Of a stretch of 15,943 nt of DNA, positions 1-15,943 are shown piece by piece. The DNA lies in the NCBI GenBank assembly GCA_963977445.1, contig CAXBPH010000157.1, positions 1 to 15,943 of the forward strand, in the 5' to 3' direction. The notes beneath the pieces were generated by a model. That model was given only the letters and a program-made list of their open reading frames with translations. It did not search any database and had not been told where the DNA came from. This DNA is from an uncultured bacterium (GTDB lineage: Bacteria; Hydrogenedentota; Hydrogenedentia; Hydrogenedentales; JAEUWI01). A program made the translations under genes and the position numbers. The first letter of the stretch is position 1. The number at the start of each line of letters is the position of its first letter.

Positions 1-1
1 T

Positions 2-1534: not shown

Positions 1535-1587
1535 CCTGCGGGGCTGTCTCGCTGAACGTGGTGCCCTTGTTTATACAACGTGCGCCT

Positions 1588-1659
1588 TGTGTCGGGCAGG
1601 AATGCCCAACCTCCTGTGCAGACGTCTCCATAGGAGGTTGGGCATTCCTGCCCGACACA
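1588..1659. repeat. Perfect 28-bp inverted repeat (REP-like doublet), each arm itself a hairpin
   Basis: TGTGTCGGGCAGGAATGCCCAACCTCCT (1588-1615) and AGGAGGTTGGGCATTCCTGCCCGACACA (1632-1659) are exact reverse complements with a 16-nt spacer. Each arm is GGAG + GTTGGGCA-TTCC-TGCCCGAC. Confidence 0.9.
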
Positions 1660-1763
1660 CAGCCCACCATGGGCTCCAAGTGGCACCCTTGACGGACACC
1701 TCCCCGATGCAAAAAACATCGCGCGGGATCTCGGGAGCATCTGGACGCGCCCCGAGGGTGACG

Positions 1764-1772
1764 TGCTACACT
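1764..1772 (+). promoter_or_regulatory. Putative extended -10 promoter (TGcTACACT) upstream of the sulfatase
   Basis: TG-C-TACACT about 85 nt upstream of the probable GTG start; no well-spaced -35. Confidence 0.4.
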
Positions 1773-1856
1773 TGGGTTTCAGATTCAATCGGCAGGAGTC
1801 CGTCCCGTTAGACCCATTTCTAACCGCACTCGTCGCCTCTCTTGAAAGGTCTTTTT

Positions 1857-3950
1857 GTGAAATCTTTGTCCATTTGTTTTTTGCTTGTATCCTTGGCTCA
1901 CGTCGCCCACGCAGCTACCCAACCCAACATCGTCTTCTTCTTCACCGATGACCAAACCACCAGCACCATCGGCTGTTATGGCAACGACGTTGTCCAGACA
2001 CCCAATATAGACAAGCTCGCCACCGAGGGTGTCCGTTTTACCAATGCCTTTGTGAGCCAGCCCATCTGCTGGGTCAGCCGGACCACTATCCTCACGGGTA
2101 TGACCGGTCGGGGCTATGGCACGCCGGAGAACCCCGAAGTGGCCCGTCCCGATGCGGCGGAAGCGCTGTTTTCTGACGAACTTCGTAAACAGGGCTATCG
2201 CACCGGTCTTTTCGGCAAATGGGACACGCGCTTTCCCAAGGACTTCGTAAAGGAAGCGCATTTCGATGTCATTGAGGCTATTGGACGGAACCCCTACTAC
2301 AAAAAGATGCCCGATGGCAGTCTCCGCCATGAAACGGAACTCATTGTGGATAAGGGCATCGAATTTCTGAAAAATCAGCCCAAAGACCAACCCTTTGCCC
2401 TCAATATGTGGTTTAACGCCTGCCACGCAGAAGATAGTGACCGTCGTCCCGGAATCGGCCATTTCCCCTGGCCCCGCGCAGTGGATGGCATGTATGAGGG
2501 CATGACCATCGCCCCTCCTCGGCTGAATGCCCCGGAGATTTTTGATGGCCAGCCGGACTTCCTGAAGACGACCCTCAACCGGGAGCGCTATTTCTGGCGG
2601 TGGAACACGGATGAGAAATACCAGACCAACATGCGGGCCTATTATCGCATGGTCAGTGGAATCGATGGTGCCATGGGGCGCTTCATGAAGGCCCTGGAAG
2701 AGGCCGGGCTGGCCGACAACACCATCATCGTTTACTCGGCCGACAATGGCTATTACATGGGCAACCGGGGCTTCGCGGGTAAGTGGTCCCACTATGAAGA
2801 GGCCTTGCGCGTTCCCCTCATCGTTTTTGACCCCCGTCTCCCCGAAACACAGCGGGGACAGGTCACCGACGCCATGGCGTTGAACGTGGACCTCCCGGCC
2901 ACTTTTGTCGACTGGGCGGGTGCTTCGGTTCCCGAGCGATTCCAGGGAGAGAGTCTCAAGGCCGTTGTCGAATCCGGAAAGCCCGCCGACTGGCGCACGG
3001 AGACCTTCCACGAACATTATGCCGTACGTTCCCGTATCCCCGCCCATGAGGGCATCCGAAACGAAGCGTTTAAATACGCCCGCTACATCGACGAAGAAAA
3101 CTTCGAGTTCCTTCACGACCTTAAAAATGACCCCAACGAATTGGTCAATCTCGCCGGTGACCCGCAGTATGCCGACACCCTGCAGGCGATGCGTGCGCGT
3201 ACGACCCAACGGGTGACCGAGCTCGGTGCCCCCCTTGCCCCCCTGGGGCAGCCCTTCACCGCAGCGACGGTCCCCCATCCGGAGGCCTCTGCCGCCGTGA
3301 GCATAACGCCCGGACCCGATGGCTTCGTCAATCTCTTCAATGGGAATAACCTCTCCGGCTGGAGCGGTGACGATGCCCTGTGGTCCGTGAAGGAGGGTGT
3401 CATTACCGGACAGACCGATGGCACGCTGAAGGTGAACAACTTCCTCACGTGGAACGGCTCGACCATCCAGAACTTTGACCTCCGGGTGCAGGTGAAGATT
3501 ACACCGGGCGGCAACAGCGGCATCCAGTACCGCAGTGATTCCCGTCCCGAAATCGACCTCTATGCGGTGTCGGGTTACCAGTGTGACATCGTGGCGGACA
3601 ACCCGGCGTACAACGGCATGCTCTATGAAGAGCGGGGTCGCGGCATCCTCTCCCAAACCGGCCAGACCACGGTGGTTGGTGCCGATGGCAAACCCGAAGT
3701 TACCGCGTCGTCGCCCGCGCCCGAGTTTGAGGCAGGTGAATGGCACGAATATCGAATTCTCGTCGAAGGCAATCACTATCAGCATTGGATTAATGGCCAA
3801 CCGACGACCGAAGTAACCGACCTCGATGAATCGGGCCGTTCCCTCGAAGGGGTGCTGGCGTTTCAGGTCCATGTGGGTGCGCCCATGACGGTGCAGTTTA
3901 AAGAGATTAAGATTAAGCATCTGCCCGACGACTTGACGCTTATCGATTAG
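1857..3950 (+). CDS. Secreted type I (formylglycine) sulfatase fused to a C-terminal DUF1080 / 3-keto-disaccharide hydrolase-like domain
   Basis: Signal peptide ending AHA-A; PNIVFFFTDDQ; TPNIDKLATEGVRFTNAF; CWVSRTTILTG; YRTGLFGKW; NTIIVYSADNG; GKWSHYEEALRVPLIV; DLKNDPNELVNLA. From ~3321: GFVNLFNGNNLSGW...GNSGIQYRS...GYQCDI...GEWHEYRI...GVLAFQVH...VQFKEIKIK. Start placed at GTG 1857 (GAAAGG at 1844-1849); the ORF track uses TTG 1842. Confidence 0.92.
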   Translation: MKSLSICFLLVSLAHVAHAATQPNIVFFFTDDQTTSTIGCYGNDVVQTPNIDKLATEGVRFTNAFVSQPICWVSRTTILTGMTGRGYGTPENPEVARPDAAEALFSDELRKQGYRTGLFGKWDTRFPKDFVKEAHFDVIEAIGRNPYYKKMPDGSLRHETELIVDKGIEFLKNQPKDQPFALNMWFNACHAEDSDRRPGIGHFPWPRAVDGMYEGMTIAPPRLNAPEIFDGQPDFLKTTLNRERYFWRWNTDEKYQTNMRAYYRMVSGIDGAMGRFMKALEEAGLADNTIIVYSADNGYYMGNRGFAGKWSHYEEALRVPLIVFDPRLPETQRGQVTDAMALNVDLPATFVDWAGASVPERFQGESLKAVVESGKPADWRTETFHEHYAVRSRIPAHEGIRNEAFKYARYIDEENFEFLHDLKNDPNELVNLAGDPQYADTLQAMRARTTQRVTELGAPLAPLGQPFTAATVPHPEASAAVSITPGPDGFVNLFNGNNLSGWSGDDALWSVKEGVITGQTDGTLKVNNFLTWNGSTIQNFDLRVQVKITPGGNSGIQYRSDSRPEIDLYAVSGYQCDIVADNPAYNGMLYEERGRGILSQTGQTTVVGADGKPEVTASSPAPEFEAGEWHEYRILVEGNHYQHWINGQPTTEVTDLDESGRSLEGVLAFQVHVGAPMTVQFKEIKIKHLPDDLTLID

Positions 3951-3975
3951 GGCTGCCCTACAAGGAGATTAATTC

Positions 3976-5292
3976 ATGTTTAGTAGTCGCCCATCATGGC
4001 AATGTATCCGGTGCCTCGTCGCCGTGGCCCTGTTGTGGCCTGTCGCCGTGCCCGCACTCGACAAAGCCGATCTCGAACTCGTTTTTGAAGATGATTTTGA
4101 GTCAGGAATGGACGGCTGGTCTTTTAGCGACGCCGTCAACTGGAAGGTGGAACAGGAAGACGACACGAACAACCACGTCCTCTCTTTGTTCACCCCCAGT
4201 GGCAACGAGCGGGACTACTTTGCACCACGGTCTGTGGCCACCATCAAGGATCTTTCCCTCGGCAGTTTTGTTCTTGAGGCGCGACTGCGACACCGGGGCA
4301 AGGAATATGGTCATCAGGATCTCTGTGTCGTTTTGAATACCGAAGGCGACTACCAGTTTTACTACGTCCATCTTGCCCCCGTGGCAGACGAGGGGGCCAA
4401 CACGGTGTTCCGCGTCGACAATGCCGAGCGAGAATCCATAGCCATCCAGCGTAGCGACGGCACGACGTGGGGCGACCAATGGCACGATGTTCGGATTGTC
4501 CGCGATGTGCTGGCGGGTGATATCACCGTCTACGTTGACGATATGAACAAGCCCGTCATGGTGGCCAACGACATCACCTTCACGAAGGGCTCCCTCGGCC
4601 TCGGCAGTTTCAACGACATCGGCTGGTTTGACGATGTGAAAATCTGGGCACCGCCCGCCCAAAAAGAGGATGTCCCTTTTGTTTCAATCTTTGATGGTAA
4701 TTCGCTTTCTGGGTGGAAGGCCTCCGACATGCGTTACTGGTCGGTCGAAGACGGGACCATCACCGGCCAATGGTCAGAAGCCCTTCCCTGCACCCAGAAT
4801 CAGTTTCTCGTCTGGCAGGGCGGCGATGTCGCGAATTTTGAACTGAAGGCGAAGTTCCGGCTTGCCGAGTCAACGGGCAACTCCGGCATTCAATTCCGAA
4901 GCCGTATCGCTGCAGACGGCACGGGTGTGGGCTACCAGGCGGACATCCTGCCCGGCGGCCCCTGGTGTGGTGCCCTCGCCGATGAGTACACGGGGCGCGA
5001 ACCGCTGATGGTGCCCAATGGGCACAAGACGGTCGTGGACTTCGACGGCAATCGCACGGTCACGCCCATCGGCGATCCGGTTGCGTTACGCCCTATCGGC
5101 GAATGGAACGACTACCATATCATCGCCCGAGACCATCGGATGACCCTCCGGGTAAACGGCGAGGTGTCGGCGGTCTTTGTCGACTACGACACGAAGGAAT
5201 TCGATCCATCCGGCATCCTGGCACTCCAGTTACGTAACCAGATGCCGATGAAAGTGCAGTTCAAAGATATCTTTCTAAAGGAGTTGCCGTGA
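3976..5292 (+). CDS. Secreted protein with an N-terminal ConA/DUF1080-like beta-sandwich and a C-terminal DUF1080 domain
   Basis: RBS AGGAG at 3963-3967; hydrophobic signal peptide. N-domain LVFEDDFESG...WHDVRIVRD...GSLGLGSFNDIGWFDDVKIW. C-domain FVSIFDGNSLSGW...WSVEDGTITG...GNSGIQFRS...GYQADI...GEWNDYHI...GILALQL...VQFKDIFLKEL. Confidence 0.88.
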   Translation: MFSSRPSWQCIRCLVAVALLWPVAVPALDKADLELVFEDDFESGMDGWSFSDAVNWKVEQEDDTNNHVLSLFTPSGNERDYFAPRSVATIKDLSLGSFVLEARLRHRGKEYGHQDLCVVLNTEGDYQFYYVHLAPVADEGANTVFRVDNAERESIAIQRSDGTTWGDQWHDVRIVRDVLAGDITVYVDDMNKPVMVANDITFTKGSLGLGSFNDIGWFDDVKIWAPPAQKEDVPFVSIFDGNSLSGWKASDMRYWSVEDGTITGQWSEALPCTQNQFLVWQGGDVANFELKAKFRLAESTGNSGIQFRSRIAADGTGVGYQADILPGGPWCGALADEYTGREPLMVPNGHKTVVDFDGNRTVTPIGDPVALRPIGEWNDYHIIARDHRMTLRVNGEVSAVFVDYDTKEFDPSGILALQLRNQMPMKVQFKDIFLKELP

Positions 5293-5304
5293 GTAATTCT
5301 ATTG

Positions 5305-5336
5305 GTGGACCCGCTCGAATTTCTCGTCGGGTCCAC
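5305..5336. repeat. Hairpin just after the DUF1080 gene (possible degenerate REP or mRNA-stabilising stem)
   Basis: GTGGACCCG (5305-5313) / CGGGTCCAC (5328-5336), perfect 9-bp stem with a 14-nt loop and no U-tract. Confidence 0.5.
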
Positions 5337-5530
5337 TCCTGGTAATTCGCCCGAGATCCTTCGAATGGCGACGCCGGCGCGGCCTCTGCTAGAATGGTGG
5401 TCATGAATCGTCACGCTTGCTCTTGGCTACCCGCACAATTTGTCTCCCGAGACACTCCCCTACGGGCACCCCGCCTGTAACCCTAACGCCTGTGCGGACA
5501 AGCGTTTCGTAATCTCACGGAGTATACCCA

Positions 5531-7576
5531 ATGCTGCTGTACCTCGCCCTCACCGCCCTGGCCGCCACGTCTCAGAATGTGCTTGACGTCGCCAACACCC
5601 CCTTTCCCCAGGAAATTCCTTCTTTTTACCAATCCGAGGAGGCCCTGCCGGACAACGTGAAGTTTCCCGCACCCTCCTTCAGTATTGATAGCGATGACCT
5701 CGCGGACGCAGGCGCTATCCTCGCTGTTGCAGCCGCACCGGGCAGCGACCACGCCACGGCCGTCGGAACGGAACAGGGTCTGTATATGGTCACTGAAAAT
5801 GGACAAGGCTTTGCCCCCGTCTATCCCGCCGACGACCACTATTCCTGGGCACCCCGCGAGGTAGGCGCTGTGGTCTATGACAGCAAAGGCCGCCTCTGGT
5901 TCGGCGCGCAAAATGGTGTCGGTGTGCTGGATGGCACGACGTGGTCACTCTATACGGGTGCCGAGGGCCTGCCCTACAACACGTTTACCTGTGCTGCGGC
6001 GGGCGAAGATGGAGCGGTCTGGTTTGGCACGGACCATGGCGCGATTCGCTTTGACGGAACCACCTGGAATTACCGTTCGGGACGGCGCTGGTTACTCGAC
6101 AATCACGTGAAGGGCATCACGGTGGAAGCCGATGGCTCTGCCTGGATAGCGACCGAAACGGGCTTCAGCTACATCAAGCGCGAGATGTGGACCCTGGAAA
6201 AGAAATCCGATTTCTTCATCGACCAGGTGGAAACGCGTCACAACCGCGATGGATTTATCACCAATTGGGATTTGGAAGTGCAGGGCGATATCTCCACCGC
6301 CGTGCCCCAAATCACCGACAATGACGGCCTCTACACCGCCATGTATGGCGCGGCTATGGCCTTTAAGTATGCGGCCACGGGCGATGAACAAGCGCGGCTA
6401 TTGGCGGAGCGGAGTTTCGACGCCTGCAAGCGCCTGGTCGATGTGGTCCCCGAGTCGATGAAAGGTTTTCCCGCCCGCGTGCTGATTCCGGCCGACTGGA
6501 AAGACCCGGTAAACGAACAATACGACGCGGAATACAACGCGCGGAAGCTCAAAGGCGACGCCTTCTGGAAACAGATCACGCCCCGCTTCCCCCTGAGTGA
6601 AGACGGCAAATACATGTGGAAGAACGACACGAGTTCCGATGAACTGGCCGGCCACTATTTCTTCTACGCCATTTACTACGATCTGGTCGCCAAAACCGAT
6701 GCCGAAAAACAGGCCGCCCAGGATTTGGTGCGGGACGTCACCGATCACCTCATCCGCAATGACTTCGCCCTGGTAGACCACGACGGCAAGCCCACCCGCT
6801 GGGGCTACTTCGGACCCAAAGCGCTCTACTCGGCCCACGGCTGGCCCCAGGTTGGCCTCAACTCCATGATGATGCTGTCCTTCCTCAATGTAGCCGAACA
6901 CGTTACGGGTGATGCCAAGTATGGAGAAGTGGCCGCCATGTTGCGCGAGAAGCACAACTACCACATCAACGCCATGGTCCCCCGCCCCACCTTTCCCCCC
7001 GGAAACGTGGTGCCCTGGGACAACAATCTGGCCCTGTTGAGCTTCTATGGCCTAATCAACTACGAGCAGGATCCCGAGCTCATGATTCTCTATCGCCAGA
7101 GTCTGGAAGATTGCTGGCAGTTCTGCAGCAAACAGAAGAATTCCCTCTGGAACTATATCTATGCGTCTGGGGCAGAAAAGTTCATCGACCTGGTGAAGGC
7201 CGACTATTTCGACGGGGCCTTCCCCGATGCGGGCCCCTATGCCCCCAACTATGTAAAACGCTTTTCCACCTACGACGCGGCCGGTGCCGATTCCCTCGAA
7301 ACCCTCCAGCGCATCCCCTTGTATCTGCTCGGATGGCCCATGGAAAATACCCATCGGCTCGACGTCGAAATGGACCCCACGCCACAGGCCGGTGACAACC
7401 ACGGCTGGTCCCGCGTGGACCACCGGGCACTGCCCATCGACGAACGTGCCCATGTACGCCAGGATCGCGATGCCTTCAAGCTGAATGGTGCGGAAGGTGA
7501 TGGCTGGACGGAACACGAAGGGACGTTTTACCTGCTGCCCTATTGGATGGCCCGGTATCATGGATTCTTGAAGTAG
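5531..7576 (+). CDS. Secreted hypothetical protein: N-terminal beta-propeller (two-component regulator propeller-like repeats) plus C-terminal helical, probable (alpha/alpha)-barrel domain
   Basis: RBS GGAG at 5519-5522; short signal peptide MLLYLALTALAA. Repeats DSKGRLWFGAQNGV, GEDGAVWFGTDHGA, EADGSAWIATETGF and a YTGAEGLP motif. C-terminal DNDGLYTAMY, NDTSSDELAGHYF, DHDGKPTRWG, YLLPYWMARYHG. Confidence 0.8.
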   Translation: MLLYLALTALAATSQNVLDVANTPFPQEIPSFYQSEEALPDNVKFPAPSFSIDSDDLADAGAILAVAAAPGSDHATAVGTEQGLYMVTENGQGFAPVYPADDHYSWAPREVGAVVYDSKGRLWFGAQNGVGVLDGTTWSLYTGAEGLPYNTFTCAAAGEDGAVWFGTDHGAIRFDGTTWNYRSGRRWLLDNHVKGITVEADGSAWIATETGFSYIKREMWTLEKKSDFFIDQVETRHNRDGFITNWDLEVQGDISTAVPQITDNDGLYTAMYGAAMAFKYAATGDEQARLLAERSFDACKRLVDVVPESMKGFPARVLIPADWKDPVNEQYDAEYNARKLKGDAFWKQITPRFPLSEDGKYMWKNDTSSDELAGHYFFYAIYYDLVAKTDAEKQAAQDLVRDVTDHLIRNDFALVDHDGKPTRWGYFGPKALYSAHGWPQVGLNSMMMLSFLNVAEHVTGDAKYGEVAAMLREKHNYHINAMVPRPTFPPGNVVPWDNNLALLSFYGLINYEQDPELMILYRQSLEDCWQFCSKQKNSLWNYIYASGAEKFIDLVKADYFDGAFPDAGPYAPNYVKRFSTYDAAGADSLETLQRIPLYLLGWPMENTHRLDVEMDPTPQAGDNHGWSRVDHRALPIDERAHVRQDRDAFKLNGAEGDGWTEHEGTFYLLPYWMARYHGFLK

Positions 7577-7609
7577 ACAGAGGGATACAGACATTCCTGT
7601 CTGTCTTTT
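7575..7609 (+). terminator. Probable intrinsic terminator that also contains a REP-like TTCC-loop palindrome
   Basis: AGACAGA-GGGAT...ATTCC-tg-TCTGTCT stem followed by T residues, right at the stop codon. Alternative fold ACAGACA-TTCC-TGTCTGT (7587-7604). Confidence 0.6.
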
Positions 7610-7926
7610 GAAACCTTCGGAAGTATCACACGCTGAAATAGGACCCAATTCCCAAACTTCTCACCCAAACGCGCCATGCGATCCGGCAACGCCGGTTCGT
7701 GTGCCCGTTGTGGGTGAGTTGGCATGACTACAAACCCATTCAGCCAAGCGGTTTTCAGGGTCTGGAAACTCCCGCCGGTGAAGCCGCTGGCAGTAGCCCG
7801 TGCGGTTGGCATTGAGCGAGTGCGACTACGGGCACACGAAGCGGCGAAGCCGCATCGCGTGGCACGGCCCCAGGACCACTGCACGCACCGGATTTGTTAT
7901 CCTCGATTTAATAGGAGGCCCAACCC

Positions 7927-8316
7927 ATGATACAACTCGACCCCATCATCGCCGTAACGGACGTGGAAGCGAGCTCCCAGTGGTATCAGGCGCTGTTGGG
8001 ATGCAAGAGCATGCACGGCGGAAGCGAGTTCGACGTGCTCGCGGATGACGATGGCGAGACAATACTCTGTTTGCATACGTGGGGTGCCCATGAGCACCCC
8101 ACGATGCTGAATTCCTCGATTACACCGGGGAACGGACTCATCCTCTACTTCAAGACGGATAACCTGGAAGGCATCCGAGCGAATGCCGAGGGGCTTGGTT
8201 GTGCGATTGAAGAAGATATCCACGTGAATGAGAACTCCACCAAACGGGAGTTTTCGTTACGGGACCTGGATGGATATTATCTGACGATCACGGAGTTTCA
8301 TCGGTACGCGGGGTAG
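7927..8316 (+). CDS. VOC family protein (glyoxalase/bleomycin resistance/dioxygenase)
   Basis: RBS AGGAGG at 7913-7918; PIIAVTDVEASSQWYQALLG; GNGLILYFKTDNLE; REFSLRDLDGYYLTI; 129 aa. Confidence 0.9.
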   Translation: MIQLDPIIAVTDVEASSQWYQALLGCKSMHGGSEFDVLADDDGETILCLHTWGAHEHPTMLNSSITPGNGLILYFKTDNLEGIRANAEGLGCAIEEDIHVNENSTKREFSLRDLDGYYLTITEFHRYAG

Positions 8317-8367
8317 GTTACGGGATGACGGGTGGGACTGTCGTCTCCAGAAAGAGAAATGTGACCG

Positions 8368-8535
8368 TTGGGAGCGCAGGCGGCTCGCCTGCATCACGCG
8401 AAAGGCGCGAAAGGCGCGAAAATAAAATGCTTCCATGGGGTCTCAAATTGACATAGCTTTCGCCCGTGTTAACTACTTATGTAACGTCCATAGATGCCTA
8501 TCGCCAGTCTGCAGGCGGGCCGCCTGCGCTCCCAA
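8368..8535. repeat. REPIN-like unit A (two inverted 26-nt REPs plus 116-nt spacer)
   Basis: TTGGGAGCGCAGGCGGCTCGCCTGCA (8368-8393) and TGCAGGCGGGCCGCCTGCGCTCCCAA (8510-8535) are 25/26 reverse-complementary. Each REP contains GCAGGCG-NNN-CGCCTGC. Confidence 0.9.
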
Positions 8536-8567
8536 TGGTTGCGTTATATTTGGTGGATTGGAGAATT

Positions 8568-8735
8568 GCTCGTCTGCACCGCGCCAAAGGCGCAAAAATA
8601 AAATGCTTCCATGGAGTATCAAATTTACGTAGCTTTCGCCCGATTAAATGGTCATGCTATTCCCATAGGCACTTATTGCTACTCTGCAGGCGGGCCGCCC
8701 TCCTTCGGCGCGTCCGAGACCTGCGCTCCCAATGG
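8568..8735. repeat. REPIN-like unit B (tandem copy of A; left REP decayed, right REP carries a 22-nt insertion)
   Basis: Shares AAAATAAAATGCTTCCATGG (8419-8438 / 8595-8614) and TAGCTTTCGCCCG (8454-8466 / 8630-8642) with A. REP at 8685-8732 is 48 nt instead of 26. A further REP remnant GCCCGCCTGC lies at 8765-8774. Confidence 0.88.
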
Positions 8736-8839
8736 ATGCGTTCGTTTTGGTGGATTGTAGATATGCCCGCCTGCCTACGTTTCTGAATCAGGAGATTCCC
8801 CTTCTATCAAGAATACTTCAATGTAAATATTCACCGCAC

Positions 8840-9433
8840 TCACATGCGGTGGGTATCGTACGGCTCAACTTCACCGCGATAGTGGGCGCTTCCAAAAGGC
8901 CAGCTTTCGGCCGTGGCGACTATGTTTGCAGTCACCGGATTTTGCTCGACGTAGAAAAGCGTTCGGGCCAGGTGAAGTGGACCGCGCATATAGCGGTCGA
9001 ATACCTCGGTCTGCCAGACGGCTCCCTTTCTTCCGACTATTTGATTCAATTTGTGGGCCGAATATGACTTCCATGAATGGGCGACATCCTCCAGGGCGTA
9101 TCCGTCGATTGTCTCCGCAATCACGTGGACGTGATTCGGCATCACACACCATGCAATCAACCGATAGCGTTGGCCATCGAAGTAGCGGAGGTTATCTTGA
9201 ACCATATTCGCGACGTCCGGTTTTCGCAACCAGCACGCACCGTGTCCCTTGTCGAGGTAGCCCTCAATCCTTCGCATACGCTCCACATCGTCAATTTTAC
9301 GTTGGCGAAGGTCCTCATCGTAAGATTCGAGGACACTCTTGGGCAGGGAGTCTTGGAGACGATAGGTGATGAATTGCACTTTACCCGGTTCGTCACAATG
9401 TGGAAGATAGCCCCGTGAATACCAGCCTCGCAT
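8840..9433 (-). CDS. REP-associated tyrosine transposase (RAYT/TnpA-REP; IS200-like Y1 HUH family)
   Basis: N-terminal WYSRGYLPH and FITYRLQDSLP; HUH motif in YRLIAWCVMPNHVH; HSWKSYSA; VWQTEVFDRYMR; putative catalytic Tyr in YVEQNPV; WPFGSA. Flanked on both sides by REPs. Confidence 0.93.
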   Translation of the reverse strand: MRGWYSRGYLPHCDEPGKVQFITYRLQDSLPKSVLESYDEDLRQRKIDDVERMRRIEGYLDKGHGACWLRKPDVANMVQDNLRYFDGQRYRLIAWCVMPNHVHVIAETIDGYALEDVAHSWKSYSAHKLNQIVGRKGAVWQTEVFDRYMRGPLHLARTLFYVEQNPVTANIVATAESWPFGSAHYRGEVEPYDTHRM

Positions 9434-9474
9434 TGGAATGCCCCTGATTGATTCGTTGCTTCATTTACTTACCT

Positions 9475-9503
9475 ACTGTAGCATCGTTAGTTATGACAGT
9501 AAA
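9475..9503 (-). promoter_or_regulatory. Putative sigma70 promoter of the RAYT gene
   Basis: Minus strand: TTTACT (9503-9498), 17 bp, TACAGT (9480-9475) with a TG extension, in an AT-rich stretch. RBS-like AGGGG precedes ATG 9433. Confidence 0.45.
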
Positions 9504-9599
9504 GGGAGTTTTTCTTGCGGCAACGGAAAAGTTTGGTGCTAACACCTGGGACACGCTGTGGTAGCGTGGCAGCCCCCACCTACAGCAAGAGAAAAGTGA

Positions 9600-9781
9600 C
9601 CATTGGGAGCGCAGGTTGCAGACGCGCCGAAGGAGGGCGGCCCGCCTGCAGAGTAGCCACGGGTGTAGCTAAACTTCGAGAGCTATTTGAATCGGACGAA
9701 AGATACTGTGGATTCGTGACGACAAAGGAGGATTTTTAACGCGCCTTCGGCGCTATGCAGGCGGGCCGCCTGCGCTCCAAA
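9600..9781. repeat. REPIN-like unit C (inverted copy of units A/B; RAYT-proximal REP carries the 22-nt insertion)
   Basis: REP with insertion at 9603-9650; plain REP at 9756-9781. Reverse complement of the spacer matches B: 9690-9706 vs 8629-8645 (15/17) and 9741-9753 vs 8581-8593 (12/13). Confidence 0.88.
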
Positions 9782-10018
9782 TTGTCGAGCCTCTTTTGCG
9801 GGAAGCGAGTGGGCAGCCCTTCCCCTGCAGTTTTGGGGCTGGGCCGCTTCGTGGGGTGTGCTTGTGGATCCGGCGTCGAGACGATGGACATCGCCCCCTT
9901 GCAAGGCCGGTACAGCCTCGCGCCCAAACGCCTCTCCCTTCGAATCCAGCTGTTTGGGACATAGGCTTCACACGCTCCCCTCCTCGCGGTCAAGCAGGGC
10001 ACGAAGGCAGTCCCTATG

Positions 10019-10060
10019 AAAAACGCCGCCCCCGAATTCCGAGGGCGGCGTTGTGTTTTT
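10019..10060 (-). terminator. Intrinsic terminator of valS (probably bidirectional)
   Basis: AACGCCGCCC (10022-10031) / GGGCGGCGTT (10043-10052) stem. A5 at 10019-10023 gives a U-tract on the minus strand; T-rich tail TTGTGTTTTT on the plus strand. Lies ~20 nt after the valS stop. Confidence 0.85.
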
Positions 10061-10074
10061 GGATATGCTATTTA

Positions 10075-12702
10075 TTATTCAGCGGCAGGAACGGGTGCCA
10101 GTACGGTTTCTACCGTGGCCAGACCGATTTCGATGGTGCCTGCGACTACGGTGGCCGTCTCGATTTTCAGCATGCGCTGGATGTCGTCGAGGGTGGCTTC
10201 GACGGCGGCGACGTTGGCTTCGGCCACAGTAATTGTCGCGGACTCAACGGGGGCCGCCATGCTGACGGCGGCGTCGGCTTTGGCCTTGCGGATTAGTTCG
10301 ACGACGGCGACTGCTGCATCGTAGGAGGTGCTGTGGGCAGGCGCAGGCACGGCGGCGAACTCGTCCAACGTGGGCCAAGGGCTCTTGTGGATGCTGGTCG
10401 CCATATCGCTATCGTTGCTGTAGGTCCAGCCCCAGACTTCTTCGGTGATGTAGGGAATGAAGGGGGCCATCATGCGGACGAGGGCGCGGTGCACCAGGCG
10501 CAGGGTGGCGCAGGCGGAAAGGCGTTCTGCGGTCAGCGCTTCGTCGTAGGTGCGCTGTTTGGCCATTTCGAGGTAGTTGTCACAATAGACACTCCAGAAA
10601 TAGCCCTCCGCCAGACTCAAGGCCTGGGCGTAGTCGAATTCCTTGAAGGCGGCTGTCGCTTTTTCGATAACGGGGCGCAACTGGGCAATGACTGCGCGGT
10701 CGAGTTCGGTGCAAATCTTGTCGGGCGTCAGCTGGTCGGCGGGCACGTCTTCAAAACGACCAATAGCGAACTTGCTGGCGTTGAAGAGTTTGGTGACCAG
10801 TTTCTTGCCGACCTTGAAGACTTTCTCGTCGAAGGAGGTGTCCACACCCAAGCGGGCGCGGGCGGCCCAGTAGCGGACGGCATCGGCGCCGAACTGGTCG
10901 ATGAGGGGCTCGGGGGTGACCACGTTGCCCTGGCTCTTCGACATTTTCTTACGGTCGGGGTCGAGAATCCAGCCGCTGAGCACGACGTTGTGCCAGGGGA
11001 CTTCTTTCTCGTGGAGATAGGCCTTCACGATGGTGTAGAAAGCCCAGGTGCGAATGATGTCGTGGCCCTGGGGACGCATGTCCATGGGGAAGAGTTTCTG
11101 GTGTCGTTCTTTGTCTTCCACCCATTGGGAAGCGACCTGGGGCGACAGGGAACTCGTGGCCCAGGTATCGAGTACGTCGGGGTCGCCGGTGAAGCCATTG
11201 GGCTGGTCACGCTGGTCGGCGGTGAAGCCTTGGGGACATTCCGACAAGGGGTCGATGGGCAGGTCCTTGAGGGTGGGAAGAATCGTCTGATCGTAGCGCA
11301 CTTCGCCATGTTCATCGAGGCGATACCACACGGGGATGGGCACGCCGAAATAACGCTGGCGGCTGAGACACCAATCCTGGTTGAGGCCTTCCACCCAGTG
11401 GGCGTAGCGCTTCTCCATGTATTCGGGGTGCCACTTAATCTTTTTGCCCTGGCCGACGAGGGCCTCTTTCTTGTCCATGATTTTGGTGTACCACTGGCGG
11501 GTGGGCACCAACTCCAGGGGACGCTCCCCTTTCTCAAAAAACTTCACCGCGTGGGTGATGTTTTCGGCGGGGCGGTCGATGACGGTGCCGTTTTCTTCGG
11601 CGGCCGCGATGACGAGTTTCTGGGCTTGTTTGGTGTATTTACCCTGAATCGTGCTGTAGACCGCGTTGGCGCTATCGGGATTGAGGCTGGGAATCTTGCC
11701 GTGTTGCTCGGGGGTTCCGGCAGCAACAAATTCGACGGCCATAAGGTGGCCGTCCCGGCCGATAATCTGGCGGAGGGGCAGCTTGTAGGCCGTCCACCAT
11801 TCCACGTCGGTCTGGTCGCCGAAGGTACAGACCATGACGACGCCCGTACCCTTTTCGGGGTCGGCTTTCGCGTCGGCCTTGATAGGAACGGGCACTTCGA
11901 AGAGGGGCGAAATGGCATTCTTGCCCACGAAGTCCGCGTAGCGCTTGTCTTCGGGGTGGACCAATACGGCGACGCAAGCGGGGAGCAATTCGGGACGGGT
12001 CGTGGCGACCACGAGTTTCTCTTCGCTGCCTTCGACGCCAAAGCGGATGAAGTTGTAGGCACTGGGTCGTTCTTTATCTTCGAGCTCGGCCTGGGCGATG
12101 GCGGTCTGGAAGTCCACGTCCCACATGACGGGGCGCTCAGCCTGATAGATCTCGTCTTTTTCGAGAAGTTCCAGGAAGCTGTATTGGGAGGTGCGCCGGG
12201 AGTGTTCGTTGATGGTGGCGTATTCCTGATCCCAGTCATAGCTCATGCCGAGACGGGTCCAAAGCTGTTTGAAGGCCTTTTCGTCGTCCACGATGACTTC
12301 GTCGCATAATTCGACAAAATTCTTACGGCTGATGGGCGTAGCGTTACCTTTTTTGCCCCGTTCCGCTTTGAAATCGGGGTCGTAGGGCAGGTGGGCTTCG
12401 CACTTCACGTTGAGGAGGTTCTGCACGCGCCGTTCGGTGGGCAGGCCGTTGTCATCCCAGCCGATGGGGAAGAAAATGTTCTTGCCCATCATCCGCTGAA
12501 AGCGCACGATGAAATCCTGATGGGAATAGCTGAAGAGGTGGCCCACATGGAGGGAACCACTTACCGTGGGCGGTGGCGTGTCGACGACAAAGCTCTCGTC
12601 GCGGCTCTTGGAAGGATCCCACTTGTAAATACCCGACGCATCCCAGCTTTCGAGCCATTTCTGTTCGGCTTCCTGGGGGTCATACTTCTTCGGCAAATCC
12701 AT
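10075..12702 (-). CDS. valS: Valine--tRNA ligase (type 2, short form)
   Basis: DTPPPTVSGSLHVGH (HIGH-type motif), GWDDNGLPTERRV, editing-domain ATTRPELL and GTGVVMVCTFGD, DWCLSRQRYFG, DVLDTWATS, PQGHDIIRTW, KMSKS. RBS AGGAGA at 12713-12708. Confidence 0.97.
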   Translation of the reverse strand: MDLPKKYDPQEAEQKWLESWDASGIYKWDPSKSRDESFVVDTPPPTVSGSLHVGHLFSYSHQDFIVRFQRMMGKNIFFPIGWDDNGLPTERRVQNLLNVKCEAHLPYDPDFKAERGKKGNATPISRKNFVELCDEVIVDDEKAFKQLWTRLGMSYDWDQEYATINEHSRRTSQYSFLELLEKDEIYQAERPVMWDVDFQTAIAQAELEDKERPSAYNFIRFGVEGSEEKLVVATTRPELLPACVAVLVHPEDKRYADFVGKNAISPLFEVPVPIKADAKADPEKGTGVVMVCTFGDQTDVEWWTAYKLPLRQIIGRDGHLMAVEFVAAGTPEQHGKIPSLNPDSANAVYSTIQGKYTKQAQKLVIAAAEENGTVIDRPAENITHAVKFFEKGERPLELVPTRQWYTKIMDKKEALVGQGKKIKWHPEYMEKRYAHWVEGLNQDWCLSRQRYFGVPIPVWYRLDEHGEVRYDQTILPTLKDLPIDPLSECPQGFTADQRDQPNGFTGDPDVLDTWATSSLSPQVASQWVEDKERHQKLFPMDMRPQGHDIIRTWAFYTIVKAYLHEKEVPWHNVVLSGWILDPDRKKMSKSQGNVVTPEPLIDQFGADAVRYWAARARLGVDTSFDEKVFKVGKKLVTKLFNASKFAIGRFEDVPADQLTPDKICTELDRAVIAQLRPVIEKATAAFKEFDYAQALSLAEGYFWSVYCDNYLEMAKQRTYDEALTAERLSACATLRLVHRALVRMMAPFIPYITEEVWGWTYSNDSDMATSIHKSPWPTLDEFAAVPAPAHSTSYDAAVAVVELIRKAKADAAVSMAAPVESATITVAEANVAAVEATLDDIQRMLKIETATVVAGTIEIGLATVETVLAPVPAAE

Positions 12703-12829
12703 GGGATTCTCCTGTTATCATCAACGTAAGTTATTTAGACAAAGGGGTATGCGCACCTGTGGCACACAGAGCAGCGCCCTCCCCAAATGCTCAAAGTGCC
12801 AGCAAGGGCACACCATTGGGGAAGGCGAG

Positions 12830-12838
12830 AGTATAGCA
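12830..12838 (-). promoter_or_regulatory. Putative extended -10 promoter of valS (TGcTATACT)
   Basis: Minus strand TG-C-TATACT, about 130 nt upstream of the valS ATG. Confidence 0.55.
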
Positions 12839-12866
12839 GAATCGGGGCAGACGATTCGACGGACGG

Positions 12867-13559
12867 CTAGGAAAACATGATTTGCAGGAGTTGGGGAATA
12901 TCCACCAATCCCTGGGCACCTATTTTCAGGAAAAAGATAAAGCAGTACATCATGGGCGTCTGAAGCAAGGGCGCCAGGACGAGGATGGCGATAATAATGC
13001 CAAAGGGTCCGATTTTGCCCAACATCTCCTTACCCGACTGGGGCAGGAAATAGTAGAGCACATGGTGGCCATCCAGGGGCGGCAAGGGAATCAAATTAAA
13101 CAGGGCGAGGACAATGTTGATGATAATCATCCCACCGAGTAGTTTGATGAAAATGTCAGGATTGGGAATACCAACCTCGTTCACCACCAGCAAGAGCAAA
13201 ACGCGCAAGAGTATCGCACTGGTCAGGGCGATCAGCACGTTGGACGCAGGGCCCGCCAGAGCAATCAATACGGGATCCCGTTTGAAGTTCTTCAGATTAT
13301 GTGGGTTAAAGGGGACGGGTTTGGCCCAACCAAAGAGGTACGATCCGGGCATCATCATCATGATGAGGGGCAGGATAACGGTACCCATGGGGTCAATGTG
13401 TTTTCGGGGGTCGATGGTCATGCGGCCGAGGAGACGCGCCGAAGGGTCGCCACAATAATTGGCCATAGCCGCGTGGGCCGCTTCGTGGACGCACAGTGAA
13501 AACAACAGGCAGAAGTACTGCATCAAGATTTGCGCAAAATCGATATTACCGGAGAGCAT
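12867..13559 (-). CDS. Site-2 protease family (peptidase M50) membrane zinc metalloprotease
   Basis: HEAAH zinc motif, GDPSARLLGRMTIDPRKHIDPMGT, FGWAKPVP, IALAGPASN, FNLIPLPPLDG; several hydrophobic segments. Confidence 0.95.
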   Translation of the reverse strand: MLSGNIDFAQILMQYFCLLFSLCVHEAAHAAMANYCGDPSARLLGRMTIDPRKHIDPMGTVILPLIMMMMPGSYLFGWAKPVPFNPHNLKNFKRDPVLIALAGPASNVLIALTSAILLRVLLLLVVNEVGIPNPDIFIKLLGGMIIINIVLALFNLIPLPPLDGHHVLYYFLPQSGKEMLGKIGPFGIIIAILVLAPLLQTPMMYCFIFFLKIGAQGLVDIPQLLQIMFS

Positions 13560-13633
13560 GGGTTAGAAGAGTCCTTACAGGATGTGAATTTGGGGGGCAC
13601 CGGAGCATGGGGTGGTGCCGCGCGACCAGCACA

Positions 13634-13663
13634 AGTATAGTGAATCGGCCCGTGGGCGATCAA
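13634..13663 (-). promoter_or_regulatory. Putative sigma70 promoter for the M50 protease gene
   Basis: Minus strand TTGATC (13663-13658), 18 bp, TATACT (13639-13634). Confidence 0.55.
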
Positions 13664-13677
13664 AGCCATCACCGCCC

Positions 13678-13706
13678 TTGAAGGTTCGCTCCGGGTGTCG
13701 TACACT
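13678..13706 (+). promoter_or_regulatory. Putative sigma70 promoter for the divergent gene
   Basis: TTGAAG (13678-13683), 17 bp, TACACT (13701-13706), then RBS AAGGAG (13716-13721) and ATG 13731. Confidence 0.65.
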
Positions 13707-13730
13707 GCGGCCACGAAGGAGAAACGATCC

Positions 13731-15245
13731 ATGGCTACCCCCCAATTCTCTGCGCGCACCGTCTCGGAACACCTGGAACCGCTACTGGCCGATGCGGTAG
13801 CGCGAAATAGCACCGCCGACCTGAATATCGCCCGCGACTATGCGGCCCTTTTTACCGACCCGGAATTAGAACTTTATCATCCGGAGAAAATATTTCAGAC
13901 CTTTGTGGCCCATTTCCCGCCGAGCAGCTTCTCCATCCATGTCGAACATGTGGAGACCGAGCGCGTAGGCGACCCCGCCCGCATGTCGGCCTGTGTGTCT
14001 GCCTTGTTGAAGGCCATCGAACGGGACCCCAAGACCATTCTCGTGGTGGAGATTTACGAGGAAGAAGAACACAGCGATATGATTCCCCGCATGAGCATTG
14101 CCTTCCAGGGGCCGGGGCGGGTGCCTGAATCTTTTCGCTATGCCGACCGCTTTCCCATGACCCTGGAAGCGCTGAGCGACTGCTGGACCCTGGCCACTTC
14201 GGGGGGCCGCATCGACCGAACCGAAAACGGGGTGGAACTCCGACTCCATGGCATGCGTATGCCCCCGGAACCGCTGGCGATTGCGGAAAACGTCGCGGCC
14301 CATCTTGGGCGGACGCCGGATGTGGAAGGTGCGACTCGTGCGCTGGCCCTGCTGGAAGACCAGACCCCACCCGATATGGCGGACCTGGAGCGACTGTACA
14401 CCGAGTGTTTGTCCGAATGGGAATCGAAGCTCAATCAGGGCGGCGTGGTTCACAGCTACAGTTTCAGCGAGGGCTTCCCCCAACTGCCCTTGAACCGCAC
14501 ACGTATGCAGGGCTTCTTCCACAGTCTTTTCTCGTGGGCCATTGACGGCATGTCGGCGGGCGGCACCCTGGAAGTGCTTCTGGACTACGACGCCGCATCA
14601 CGGGAGGCCACCGGCATACTCAGCCTGAGCACGGCGGAAGGAAAAATCCCCGATTCCTATCATGGGTCCCTCATGAAACGGGCCATCGAATTTCACGGGG
14701 GCACCTGTGAGGTTGATAGCCAGGAATCTGACCTCACGCTCACCTTTACCCTCGGCGACTCGCTGGGGCAGACCCTTGATGCATGGTTACCGGGGTGGGA
14801 ATTCCTGGGCCCCGAATCCCGGAAATATCTCCGACTCCTCAAGAGTGGCGCCCAGGCTCCGCCGGAGGATTTTATCCTGGGTGGCATTCTGGAGCAGGAG
14901 TTGGAGAACTGGCTACTCCCCCGCCTTACGGTGCCCGCGACGGTGCGCATGGCTTCCGATGGCACCTTTAGAAACGACAAACTCAAGGGAAGCATCAAAG
15001 AACGGATGCAAAAGGCCTTGGACCAGGTCGGCCGGGGCAAACCGAAGAAGGAAATCTGCCAACCCCAATATGCGGGCGAACTCTTCGGTGCCTTTGGTGC
15101 TGACGCACGTCACCGGAGCGCCCTGGGCACCCAGGTATTGACCGACGACGAACTCACGGATTTGTGTGAATCACTGCTGGCCAAACCCGTGGACGGTCGT
15201 CATTGTCTTCTACTGGTCGCTGCACTCTTGGGCCGGTCTGGCTAA
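13731..15245 (+). CDS. Hypothetical protein with two degenerate histidine-kinase-like ATPase (HATPase_c) folds and a helical C-terminal domain
   Basis: Start at ATG 13731 from the RBS and promoter. DPARMSACVSALLKAI...FQGPG...SGGRIDRTENGVELRL and DLERLYTECL...FPQLPLNRTRMQGFFHSLFSWAIDGMSAGGTLEV...GKIP...MKRAIEFHGGTCEVDS...TLTFTL follow the HATPase_c pattern without intact catalytic boxes. Confidence 0.75.
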   Translation: MATPQFSARTVSEHLEPLLADAVARNSTADLNIARDYAALFTDPELELYHPEKIFQTFVAHFPPSSFSIHVEHVETERVGDPARMSACVSALLKAIERDPKTILVVEIYEEEEHSDMIPRMSIAFQGPGRVPESFRYADRFPMTLEALSDCWTLATSGGRIDRTENGVELRLHGMRMPPEPLAIAENVAAHLGRTPDVEGATRALALLEDQTPPDMADLERLYTECLSEWESKLNQGGVVHSYSFSEGFPQLPLNRTRMQGFFHSLFSWAIDGMSAGGTLEVLLDYDAASREATGILSLSTAEGKIPDSYHGSLMKRAIEFHGGTCEVDSQESDLTLTFTLGDSLGQTLDAWLPGWEFLGPESRKYLRLLKSGAQAPPEDFILGGILEQELENWLLPRLTVPATVRMASDGTFRNDKLKGSIKERMQKALDQVGRGKPKKEICQPQYAGELFGAFGADARHRSALGTQVLTDDELTDLCESLLAKPVDGRHCLLLVAALLGRSG

Positions 15246-15283
15246 GCTGCCCCCCCCAAGCAACGGACTCCGGCTCCGCCGGT

Positions 15284-15844
15284 TCACCCGCCGAGCTGCT
15301 CGATTAACTCTGAGGCATCGGCTTTGGACTTCATGCGGGCTATCTGGGCACCACTGGCACCGAGGGTGTGGAGCAACTCAATCTGCATCCGCGTTGGTCG
15401 CAGGTGCATGGCCTCGATGAGGGATGAGGCGTCGGCCTGGCTGATTACCGTTGCGATACGGGCGGGTGGTGCACCGAGCCTGCCAAGATGGGCCAATTGC
15501 TTTTCCGTGGGTGGCGACAACTTCAGATGCTGCGCCTTGAGGGTATCGATACGTTCCGAAGCGGTTCCCCTATCCATCGTTACGACTTCGGATTCCCGGG
15601 CACCAAGGCGACGAAGATATTCCTTCTGTGCCTCAGAAGCGGGCTCATTTGAACCGGCTTCCATCGGCAACTCTTCGACCAGACTCGCCATTTGGGGTGC
15701 CGGGTCATTGGCCGACCCGATGAGGGCGATGCGGGTGCGACATTTGTTGCAGCATCCCCGCTGTCCGAGGTGTTTTGGTGCTATTTTCAACACCTGCTTA
15801 CAGGATGGACATATAAACTGGAGCATGCGTTCTGGTTTCTCCAT
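15284..15844 (-). CDS. Hypothetical protein: N-terminal CxxC-CxxC zinc ribbon plus three ~36-aa DUF3072-like repeats
   Basis: FICPSCKQVLKI...GCCNKCRTRI; three repeats of P-[ST]-x2-Q-x3-L-x2-LG-x(~10)-AS-x2-I-[DE]-x-[LM] type. Start could also be Met7. Confidence 0.8.
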   Translation of the reverse strand: MEKPERMLQFICPSCKQVLKIAPKHLGQRGCCNKCRTRIALIGSANDPAPQMASLVEELPMEAGSNEPASEAQKEYLRRLGARESEVVTMDRGTASERIDTLKAQHLKLSPPTEKQLAHLGRLGAPPARIATVISQADASSLIEAMHLRPTRMQIELLHTLGASGAQIARMKSKADASELIEQLGG

Positions 15845-15943
15845 GGCGCGGACGGGCCGCGTTGCTCCATCAGTGGTAGTACGTTGATTCTAGAGATTTA
15901 AGATGGGCTAACCCATCACGAAGTAGTTGGTCGCTTGATTCGG

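Follow-up and report, generated by a model that had tools for sequence, protein, structure and literature searches.

A REPtron from the Hydrogenedentota in which the two intact REPs facing the RAYT gene share a 22-nt insertion

Positions 1 to 15,943 of the contig CAXBPH010000157.1, from an uncultured bacterium of the Hydrogenedentota (assembly GCA_963977445.1), were analysed; this stretch is termed the window here. Within it a 1.76-kb gap between a glyoxalase-fold gene (7927-8316) and valS (10075-12702, minus strand) contains a single open reading frame (ORF). Judged by its sequence, this is an intact gene for a REP-associated tyrosine transposase (RAYT), a Y1 transposase of the RAYT/TnpAREP type. 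Repetitive extragenic palindromes (REPs) lie on both sides of the gene, where they form heads-out inverted doublets (REPINs) with spacers of about 100-116 nt. The locus is a REPtron, that is a single RAYT among its cognate repeats, placed between REPIN units. The two intact REPs that face the gene share an insertion of 22 nt that splits one arm of the REP hairpin, and it is this insertion that requires an explanation.

The assignment of the gene draws on several lines of comparison. The HVH motif lies within PNHVHVI, and the catalytic tyrosine is found in the Y---NP context of the translation. The protein scores 29.5 bits against Pfam Y1_Tnp, above the cut-off of 23, and 70.5 bits against the NCBIfam equivalog REP_Tyr_transpos (REP-associated tyrosine transposase), under the cut-off of 80. 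Its best solved relative is the E. coli TnpAREP structure 4er8 (E 3.3e-05, aligned over residues 89-184). At E <= 0.001 relatives make up 1239 of 1264 candidates, and several of these are named RayT by their sources. The closest homologues are 81 and 77% identical and equal in length to the RAYT, the ORF of which is intact. The protein cluster at 90% identity to which it belongs represents two contigs only. The motifs NHVH, WQ and YVEQNP fit subclasses 2.1, 2.4 and 2.7 in Table 1 of PMC6006769, and do so ambiguously.

There are five REPs in the 16 kb of the window, designated R1 through R5. The whole window was scanned with the 22-nt core, allowing up to five mismatches, and the seven rows returned all fall at these five sites. 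Every one of the five is extragenic, lying between ORFs with family matches. The core of the canonical REP is GCAGGCGGGCCGCC followed by TGCGCTCC; it is uninterrupted at 8511-8532, at 9757-9778 and, with one mismatch, at 8371-8392. The canonical REP is a GC hairpin of 7-8 bp (GCAGGCGG/CCGCCTGC) with the head 5'-GGGAGC at one side. The head is GGGAGC in R1 to R4 and GGAGC in R5; it differs from GT[AG]G, while occupying the position of GTAG at the foot of the hairpin. The features of the locus are as follows.

8364-8393, plus strand: R1, a canonical REP and the outer REP of REPIN unit 1; the head 5'-GGGAGC reads on the plus strand and the stem is 7 bp
8397-8418: small GC hairpin(s) CGCGAAAGGCGCG, repeated once, adjoining the tail of R1
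8405-8577, plus strand: tandem unit A, comprising hairpin, spacer, R2 and linker
8510-8539, minus strand: R2, a canonical REP and the inner REP of REPIN unit 1, pairing with R1 in a 36-bp REPIN stem
8560-8578, plus strand: degenerate half-REP GGAGAATTGCTCGTCTGCA, aligned under R1, with the 3' half retained and the head-proximal arm gone
8581-8774, plus strand: tandem unit B, which copies unit A and comprises hairpin (8581-8593), spacer, R3 and linker
8678-8735: left 58-nt arm, comprising the 7-nt tail flank GCTACTC and the interrupted REP R3 (8685-8735)
8700-8721: 22-nt insertion in R3, CTCCTTCGGCGCGTCCGAGACC on the plus strand
8757-8774, plus strand: second degenerate half-REP GTAGATATGCCCGCCTGC, with CCGCCTGC at 8767; the remnant closest to the RAYT stop codon
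8840-9433, minus strand: gene for the RAYT/TnpAREP-type Y1 transposase, 197 amino acids, with HVH as its HUH motif and the tyrosine in YVEQNP
9600-9657: right 58-nt arm, comprising the interrupted REP R4 (9600-9650) and the 7-nt tail flank
9614-9635: 22-nt insertion in R4, GGTTGCAGACGCGCCGAAGGAG on the plus strand, equal at 19 of 22 positions to the R3 insertion in reverse complement
9741-9753: small GC hairpin GCGCCTTCGGCGC adjoining the tail of R5
9755-9785, minus strand: R5, a canonical REP with head CTCCAAAT and the outer REP of REPIN unit C, pairing with R4 with the insertion bulged

A sequence-only reading of the window had described 8678-8735 and 9600-9657 as reverse complements at 55 of 58 positions enclosing 980 bp (8678-9657), with a 22-nt insertion in both arms that is absent from the other three REPs and that interrupts the GGAG-proximal arm of the hairpin. 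Direct comparison of the arms and the core scan of the window bear out each of these observations. The three mismatches between the arms are confined to four consecutive bases of the insertion (CCGAGA versus CTGCAA). In both R3 and R4 the insertion sits between ...GCCGCC and TGCGCTCC, and its boundary can slide by 2 nt, with CC at both sides. When the element is read from 5'-GGGAGC the insertion follows GCAGG, placing it inside the head-proximal arm. Two of the earlier descriptions need to be modified. The 58-bp inverted repeat is real, but the symmetry extends beyond it: a repeat search lengthens the arms to 75 nt at 85% (8678-8752/9583-9657), and the whole REPIN units 8560-8735 and 9600-9785 align as mirror images at lower identity than the 58-nt arms. 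Similarly R3 and R4 are the intact REPs nearest to the RAYT, but the half-REP at 8757-8774 stands between R3 and the gene.

Most of the match between the arms is ordinary REP conservation, because any two of the three units compared are 94-95% alike in their REP parts. R1 and R5 are likewise inverted with respect to each other, with 74% identity over 69 nt. What is private to R3 and R4 is only the insertion itself (19/22) and the 7-nt flank GCTACTC. Given two carriers of the insertion among five REPs, the chance that these would be the two intact REPs nearest to the gene is 1 in 10, and thus the link between insertion and gene is not statistically strong.

We looked for a source of the inserted sequence within the window. 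Its best local alignment elsewhere is a 14-nt exact match at about 13432-13445 (minus strand), in an M50 peptidase ORF, where it codes for GDPSARLLG. Shuffled inserts reached the score of this match in 0 of 60 trials for the R4 insertion and in 1 of 60 for that of R3. We nevertheless judge the match to be a coincidence in GC-rich coding DNA. An origin from the REP tail together with the small GC hairpin beside R5 gives 15/17 with one gap, a lower score than the M50 match, and we make no claim for it. A collapsed tandem REP pair would need two deletions and is unsupported, and a simple duplication of the head, of the type seen in two loci of other genomes (L107 and L024), does not fit the insertion of R3 and R4. 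As a separate observation, the insertion contains (8703-8710, 9625-9632) the Shine-Dalgarno-like AAGGAGGG on one strand and the anti-Shine-Dalgarno-like CCCTCCTT on the other. On the RAYT strand CCCTCCTT lies upstream of the gene and AAGGAGGG downstream, with no start codon at a usable distance.

Calculated folding shows what the insertion does to the hairpin. R1, R2 and R5 fold to the canonical 7-bp stem on both strands; in R3 and R4 that stem is missing from the minimum-energy structures, again on both strands. On one strand of R4 the insertion provides a new arm, and the hairpin so generated has 12 bp (-13.5 kcal/mol, z -2.47). R3 does not form the new hairpin (z -0.77 and +0.24), and therefore no alternative structure is conserved. 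At the level of the doublet, R1-R2 folds into a REPIN with a 36-bp stem (-54.2 kcal/mol, z -6.94). The R4-R5 REPIN retains its stem with the insertion bulged out (-45.4 kcal/mol, z -3.67), so that within the REPIN hairpin the R4 insertion is predicted to be a mere bulge. As single hairpins, the interrupted REPs R3 and R4 are probably poor substrates for the RAYT, because the canonical stem is lost; here we argue by analogy with the requirements of the E. coli and S. maltophilia enzymes. Binding by E. coli TnpAREP is reported to require the 5' tetranucleotide at the foot of the hairpin plus the stem (PMC3479197), and for S. maltophilia a mismatch in the stem is reported to have affected or nearly abolished cleavage (PMC8266576). 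The sequence-only reading had spoken of disarmed copies. The structural premise of that term stands, in that the canonical hairpin is lost in the folding of R3 and R4, and nothing shows selection for its loss.

The REPs are part of larger repeated units. A spacer and a small GC hairpin adjoining one of the REPs belong to every REPIN unit, and homology between the units extends over their entire length. Two units stand in tandem to the left of the gene, where the second unit and the stub that follows it start with the half-REPs 8560-8578 and 8757-8774; to the right there is one unit in mirror orientation. Both half-REPs have kept the 3' arm and the tail, and AT-rich sequence replaces the head-proximal arm, which in R3 and R4 is the one split by the 22-nt insertion. 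The inverted repeat around the RAYT is a whole REPIN unit on each side, of approximately 185 nt, and the 58 nt is its best-kept core. Comparing hairpin plus spacer, units 1 and 2 (tandem units A and B) have 76 matches, 21 mismatches and 1 gap column, and the mirror units 2 and C have 64 matches, 21 mismatches and 23 gap columns. The left 58-nt arm is internal to tandem unit B, and the collinearity of this unit with unit A continues to either side of the arm. The two arms are bordered by differing sequences, and no direct repeat flanks 8678-9657. Base composition is even across the REP/RAYT region. We also note a sigma-70-like hexamer pair (TTGAGA or TTGATA, 16 nt, TATTTT) on the minus strand at 8419-8446 and 8595-8622, at the equivalent position in both tandem REPIN spacers and directed away from the RAYT.

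How general is the interrupted form? Genome contigs were scanned with a gapped pattern that matches either form of the REP, and the 125 loci listed all come from genomes other than that of the host; the pattern favours identical cores, and a few of the loci overlap, so that some of the 142 matches are counted twice. Among the matches listed, 83 of 142 are ungapped and five have a 22-nt gap, these five being unrelated sequences. The insertion motif is present in none of the 125 loci listed. In the same set the uninterrupted core is a repeated element, with head GGAGC, in Acidobacteriota, Verrucomicrobiota, Chloroflexota, Zobellella and a metagenome-assembled genome of the Hydrogenedentota. Where the listed loci contain doublets, 13 are heads-out as against 2 heads-in (for example L029 1498-1593, L045 1500-1600 and L111 299-416). 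Homologues of the RAYT adjoin uninterrupted cores in L047 (51% identity over 178 amino acids) and in L088/L089. We inspected two related REPtrons and found the gene-proximal REPs of both to be uninterrupted; therefore the insertion is not general to this RAYT family. From these comparisons (the ungapped majority of listed matches, the absence of the insertion motif from the listed loci and the RAYT homologues beside uninterrupted cores) we conclude that the uninterrupted form is ancestral, and the 22 nt a derived insertion. A search of the protein collection with the 74-amino-acid frame that runs through R4 (9515-9736) found no further copy of the 48-nt form, but its power is low and it cannot be taken to show absence.

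Some further features of the foreign loci deserve mention. L047 and L089 are dimorphic, with the compensatory variants GCAGGCG/CGCCTGC and GCGGGCG/CGCCCGC. In L089 (Zobellella denitrificans, 185-227) the RAYT stop codon is followed by a half-REP comprising head and 5' arm, 9 nt, and a complete REP in inverted orientation, so that the window is not alone in having irregular repeats next to the gene. One REP core (GCAGGCGNGCCGCCTGCGCTCC) together with related RAYTs spans several phyla, and near-identical REP cores across phyla are unusual compared with the reported co-divergence of RAYT and REP.

The explanation that we favour, with a probability of about 0.45 and so tentatively, is that R3 and R4 share a single indel in a decaying REPtron, by descent or through gene conversion between its mirror-image units, and that this indel has no selected role. 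A single insertion event would have occurred in one REP of the REPtron, splitting its head-proximal arm. The second copy would then have arisen either through common descent of the mirror-image units or through gene conversion between them, and the insertion would have no selected function in a REPtron that is undergoing decay. We favour this explanation because it fits the other local rearrangements, namely the two half-REPs lacking the head-proximal arm and the duplication of the tandem unit. It also agrees with Nunvar et al. (PMC2817692), who describe two inverted REPs as flanking rayt genes in every case and as undergoing concerted change. How the insertion was copied, that the interrupted REPs are less active and that no function was selected are what we infer to be most likely.

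Three observations weigh against this explanation. Conservation of the insertion (19/22, 86%) exceeds that of the spacers of units 2 and C (64 matches in 108 columns), which could indicate constraint or recent conversion. By its spacer the unit closest to unit 2 is unit 1 (76 of 98 columns), and this has no insertion; therefore simple descent needs an extra step, either conversion or loss of the insertion. Lastly, both carriers are intact REPs facing the gene, for which the odds by chance are those given above.

The main alternative, which we consider unlikely, is that the 48-nt form is a second, longer and active REP subfamily, which is present at many sites and pairs with the short form, so that its adjacency to the RAYT is incidental. 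The right-hand unit C is just such a doublet of a short and a long REP, still folding as a REPIN with the insertion bulged, and the insertion of R4 supplies the arm of a 12-bp hairpin. Variation of this general kind is documented. REP lengths are given as 35, 29 and 37 nt for E. coli y, z1 and z2 and as 42 and 38 nt for Marinomonas (PMC8266576), almost half of the RAYT genes sampled in PMC6006769 are said to have two or more REP subfamilies at their flanks, and the related REPtrons L047 and L089 contain both GCAGGCG and GCGGGCG types. The prior is raised by a report of composites of a degenerate REP with an unrelated stem-loop, which form inverted repeats flanking certain Pseudomonas RAYTs and number in the hundreds per genome (PMC3733652). 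Yet the new hairpin of R4 is not conserved in R3, both REPs of the unit 1 doublet are short, the insertion is lacking in all the listed foreign loci with the same core, and the search with the spurious frame through R4, for what its low power is worth, gave no other copy. Rather less probable is that the insertion was selected as a domestication lock, disabling the gene-facing REPs so that the RAYT cannot cleave beside, excise or rearrange its own gene. Such a lock would be carried by both intact gene-facing REPs, as observed; in these the canonical hairpin is lost, with the head displaced from its foot, and their insertion is more conserved than the spacers nearby. The reported need for the head at the foot and for the stem in binding (PMC3479197), and the impairment of cleavage by stem mismatches (PMC8266576), are in keeping with it. 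So is the fact that the single-copy state of RAYTs is treated as an open matter (PMC5581495, PMC3116915). However, the canonical R1, R2 and R5 bracket the gene within 450 bp, leaving it unprotected from cleavage at intact sites. Moreover the position of the carriers would arise by chance in one case in ten, the related REPtrons have uninterrupted proximal REPs, and a neutral indel with conversion accounts for the same data. In its fullest form the proposal would be one of selected self-restraint, with the RAYT unable to cut, excise or copy its own gene and the dispersed REPINs still mobile, and this we regard as improbable. In a variant of it, CCCTCCTT upstream and AAGGAGGG downstream could affect the transcript as well, whether by end-to-end pairing or as an anti-Shine-Dalgarno sequence.

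It is also conceivable that the 58-bp arms act as functional ends to a 980-bp RAYT unit that is either mobile like an insertion sequence (IS) or inverted by recombination, possibly switching RAYT expression. We hold this to be very doubtful, and specialised ends of a mobile unit are disfavoured. The arms are indeed inverted, match at 55/58 and enclose one ORF, and inverted repeats of 58 bp suffice in length for homologous recombination. An IS-like layout of rayt genes was remarked upon when RAYTs were first described (PMC2817692). Against this, the left arm is embedded within tandem unit B, whose collinearity with unit A across the arm means that the borders of the arm are not those of an element. 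No direct repeat flanks the segment, the RAYT cluster represents just the two contigs, and a blastn search with 8330-9820 gave zero matches in the plasmid collection. According to PMC6006769 REPtrons do not transpose as a whole, and they are reported to offer no evidence of mobility (PMC8266576). An assembly artefact, with a metagenome assembler having collapsed or mis-joined copies of a repeat, would be in keeping with a repeat-dense region from an uncultured Hydrogenedentota-type source. We think this highly improbable. Three positions distinguish the two insertions, which occupy different flanks; compared with its 81 and 77% homologues the RAYT ORF is intact and of full length; and the composition is even across the region.

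On present evidence the locus is an ordinary REPtron of a little-studied phylum with one shared indel, and its main value is as a documented example. The idea of self-restraint would, if true, provide a reason at the level of sequence why RAYTs remain single-copy. RAYTs are stated to be single-copy and without sign of mobility, and how an active transposase can move REPINs and yet not dislodge its own gene, flanked by REPs, is unexplained in those accounts (PMC5581495, PMC8266576, PMC3116915). If gene-facing REPs were regularly disabled, this would answer the question in a concrete and testable way.

Other features of the window may be noted briefly. Named relatives of valS, the best at 78%, are from Candidatus Hydrogenedentes. 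A scan for promoters and terminators over 8250-10150 gave no prediction on either 58-nt arm. No Rfam family reached its gathering score in the whole window, a relaxed search giving weak terminator-like matches at 10007-10106 only, and a search for tRNA genes found none. An 88-nt near-perfect palindrome at 1580-1667, with two abutting 44-nt arms that are 89% complementary and a sequence unrelated to the REPs, lies between an FAD-oxidoreductase/Golvesin gene and a sulfatase gene. There is a 42-nt inverted repeat (83%) at 7670-7711/7825-7866, with a 113-nt spacer, upstream of the glyoxalase-fold gene. On the minus strand at 1785-3920 a 711-amino-acid ORF without family match runs antisense to a sulfatase/3-keto-disaccharide hydrolase gene (1842-3950), and is probably a non-coding shadow frame.

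How does the locus compare with known systems? REPtrons, REPINs, tandem REPIN clusters, multiple REP forms for one RAYT and composite inverted repeats have all been published already. In a non-exhaustive search of the RAYT and REP literature we found no description of a stem insertion shared by gene-facing REPs, or of the proposed lock. The IS200/IS605 elements have a related Y1 transposase, and subterminal hairpins with an adjacent guide or head sequence that are recognised in single-stranded DNA. However, their ends are not inverted and they are multicopy and mobile, whereas the flanks of this locus are inverted and there is no indication that the gene is mobile. The locus is not a TIRtron or TIRYT, in which long terminal inverted repeats (TIRs) are unrelated to REPs: its arms are REP-derived, and GGGGWSAS, characteristic of most TIRs, occurs three times in the window and not at all in 8300-9850. 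The composite TIRs and TIRtrons of Di Nocera et al. (2013) resemble it in having long inverted repeats at a RAYT-like gene, made of a REP-derived part and other sequence. In those composites, however, a degenerate REP is joined to a separate stem-loop, in hundreds of copies, whereas here the extra sequence lies within an otherwise intact REP.

The REPINs of Pseudomonas fluorescens SBW25 (Bertels and Rainey 2011) share with those of the window a heads-out doublet arrangement that folds as a long hairpin. REPINs are known to cluster in tandem with their flanks included (PMC3116915), and in SBW25, as here, decayed singlets lie alongside the tandem units. The SBW25 spacer is 71 nt compared with about 105-116 nt here, and in two of the doublets of the window one partner is interrupted. 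With known REPtrons, for example that of E. coli yafM (Nunvar 2010, Ton-Hoang 2012), the locus has in common a single Y1/HUH gene with inverted cognate REP doublets on each side, flanking REPs that evolve in concert, and more than one form of REP beside the gene. It differs in its head, which is GGGAGC rather than GTAG, and in its Hydrogenedentota host. Lastly, its inner REPs are set apart by a shared 22-nt insertion in the stem, rather than by a difference in the length of the loop.

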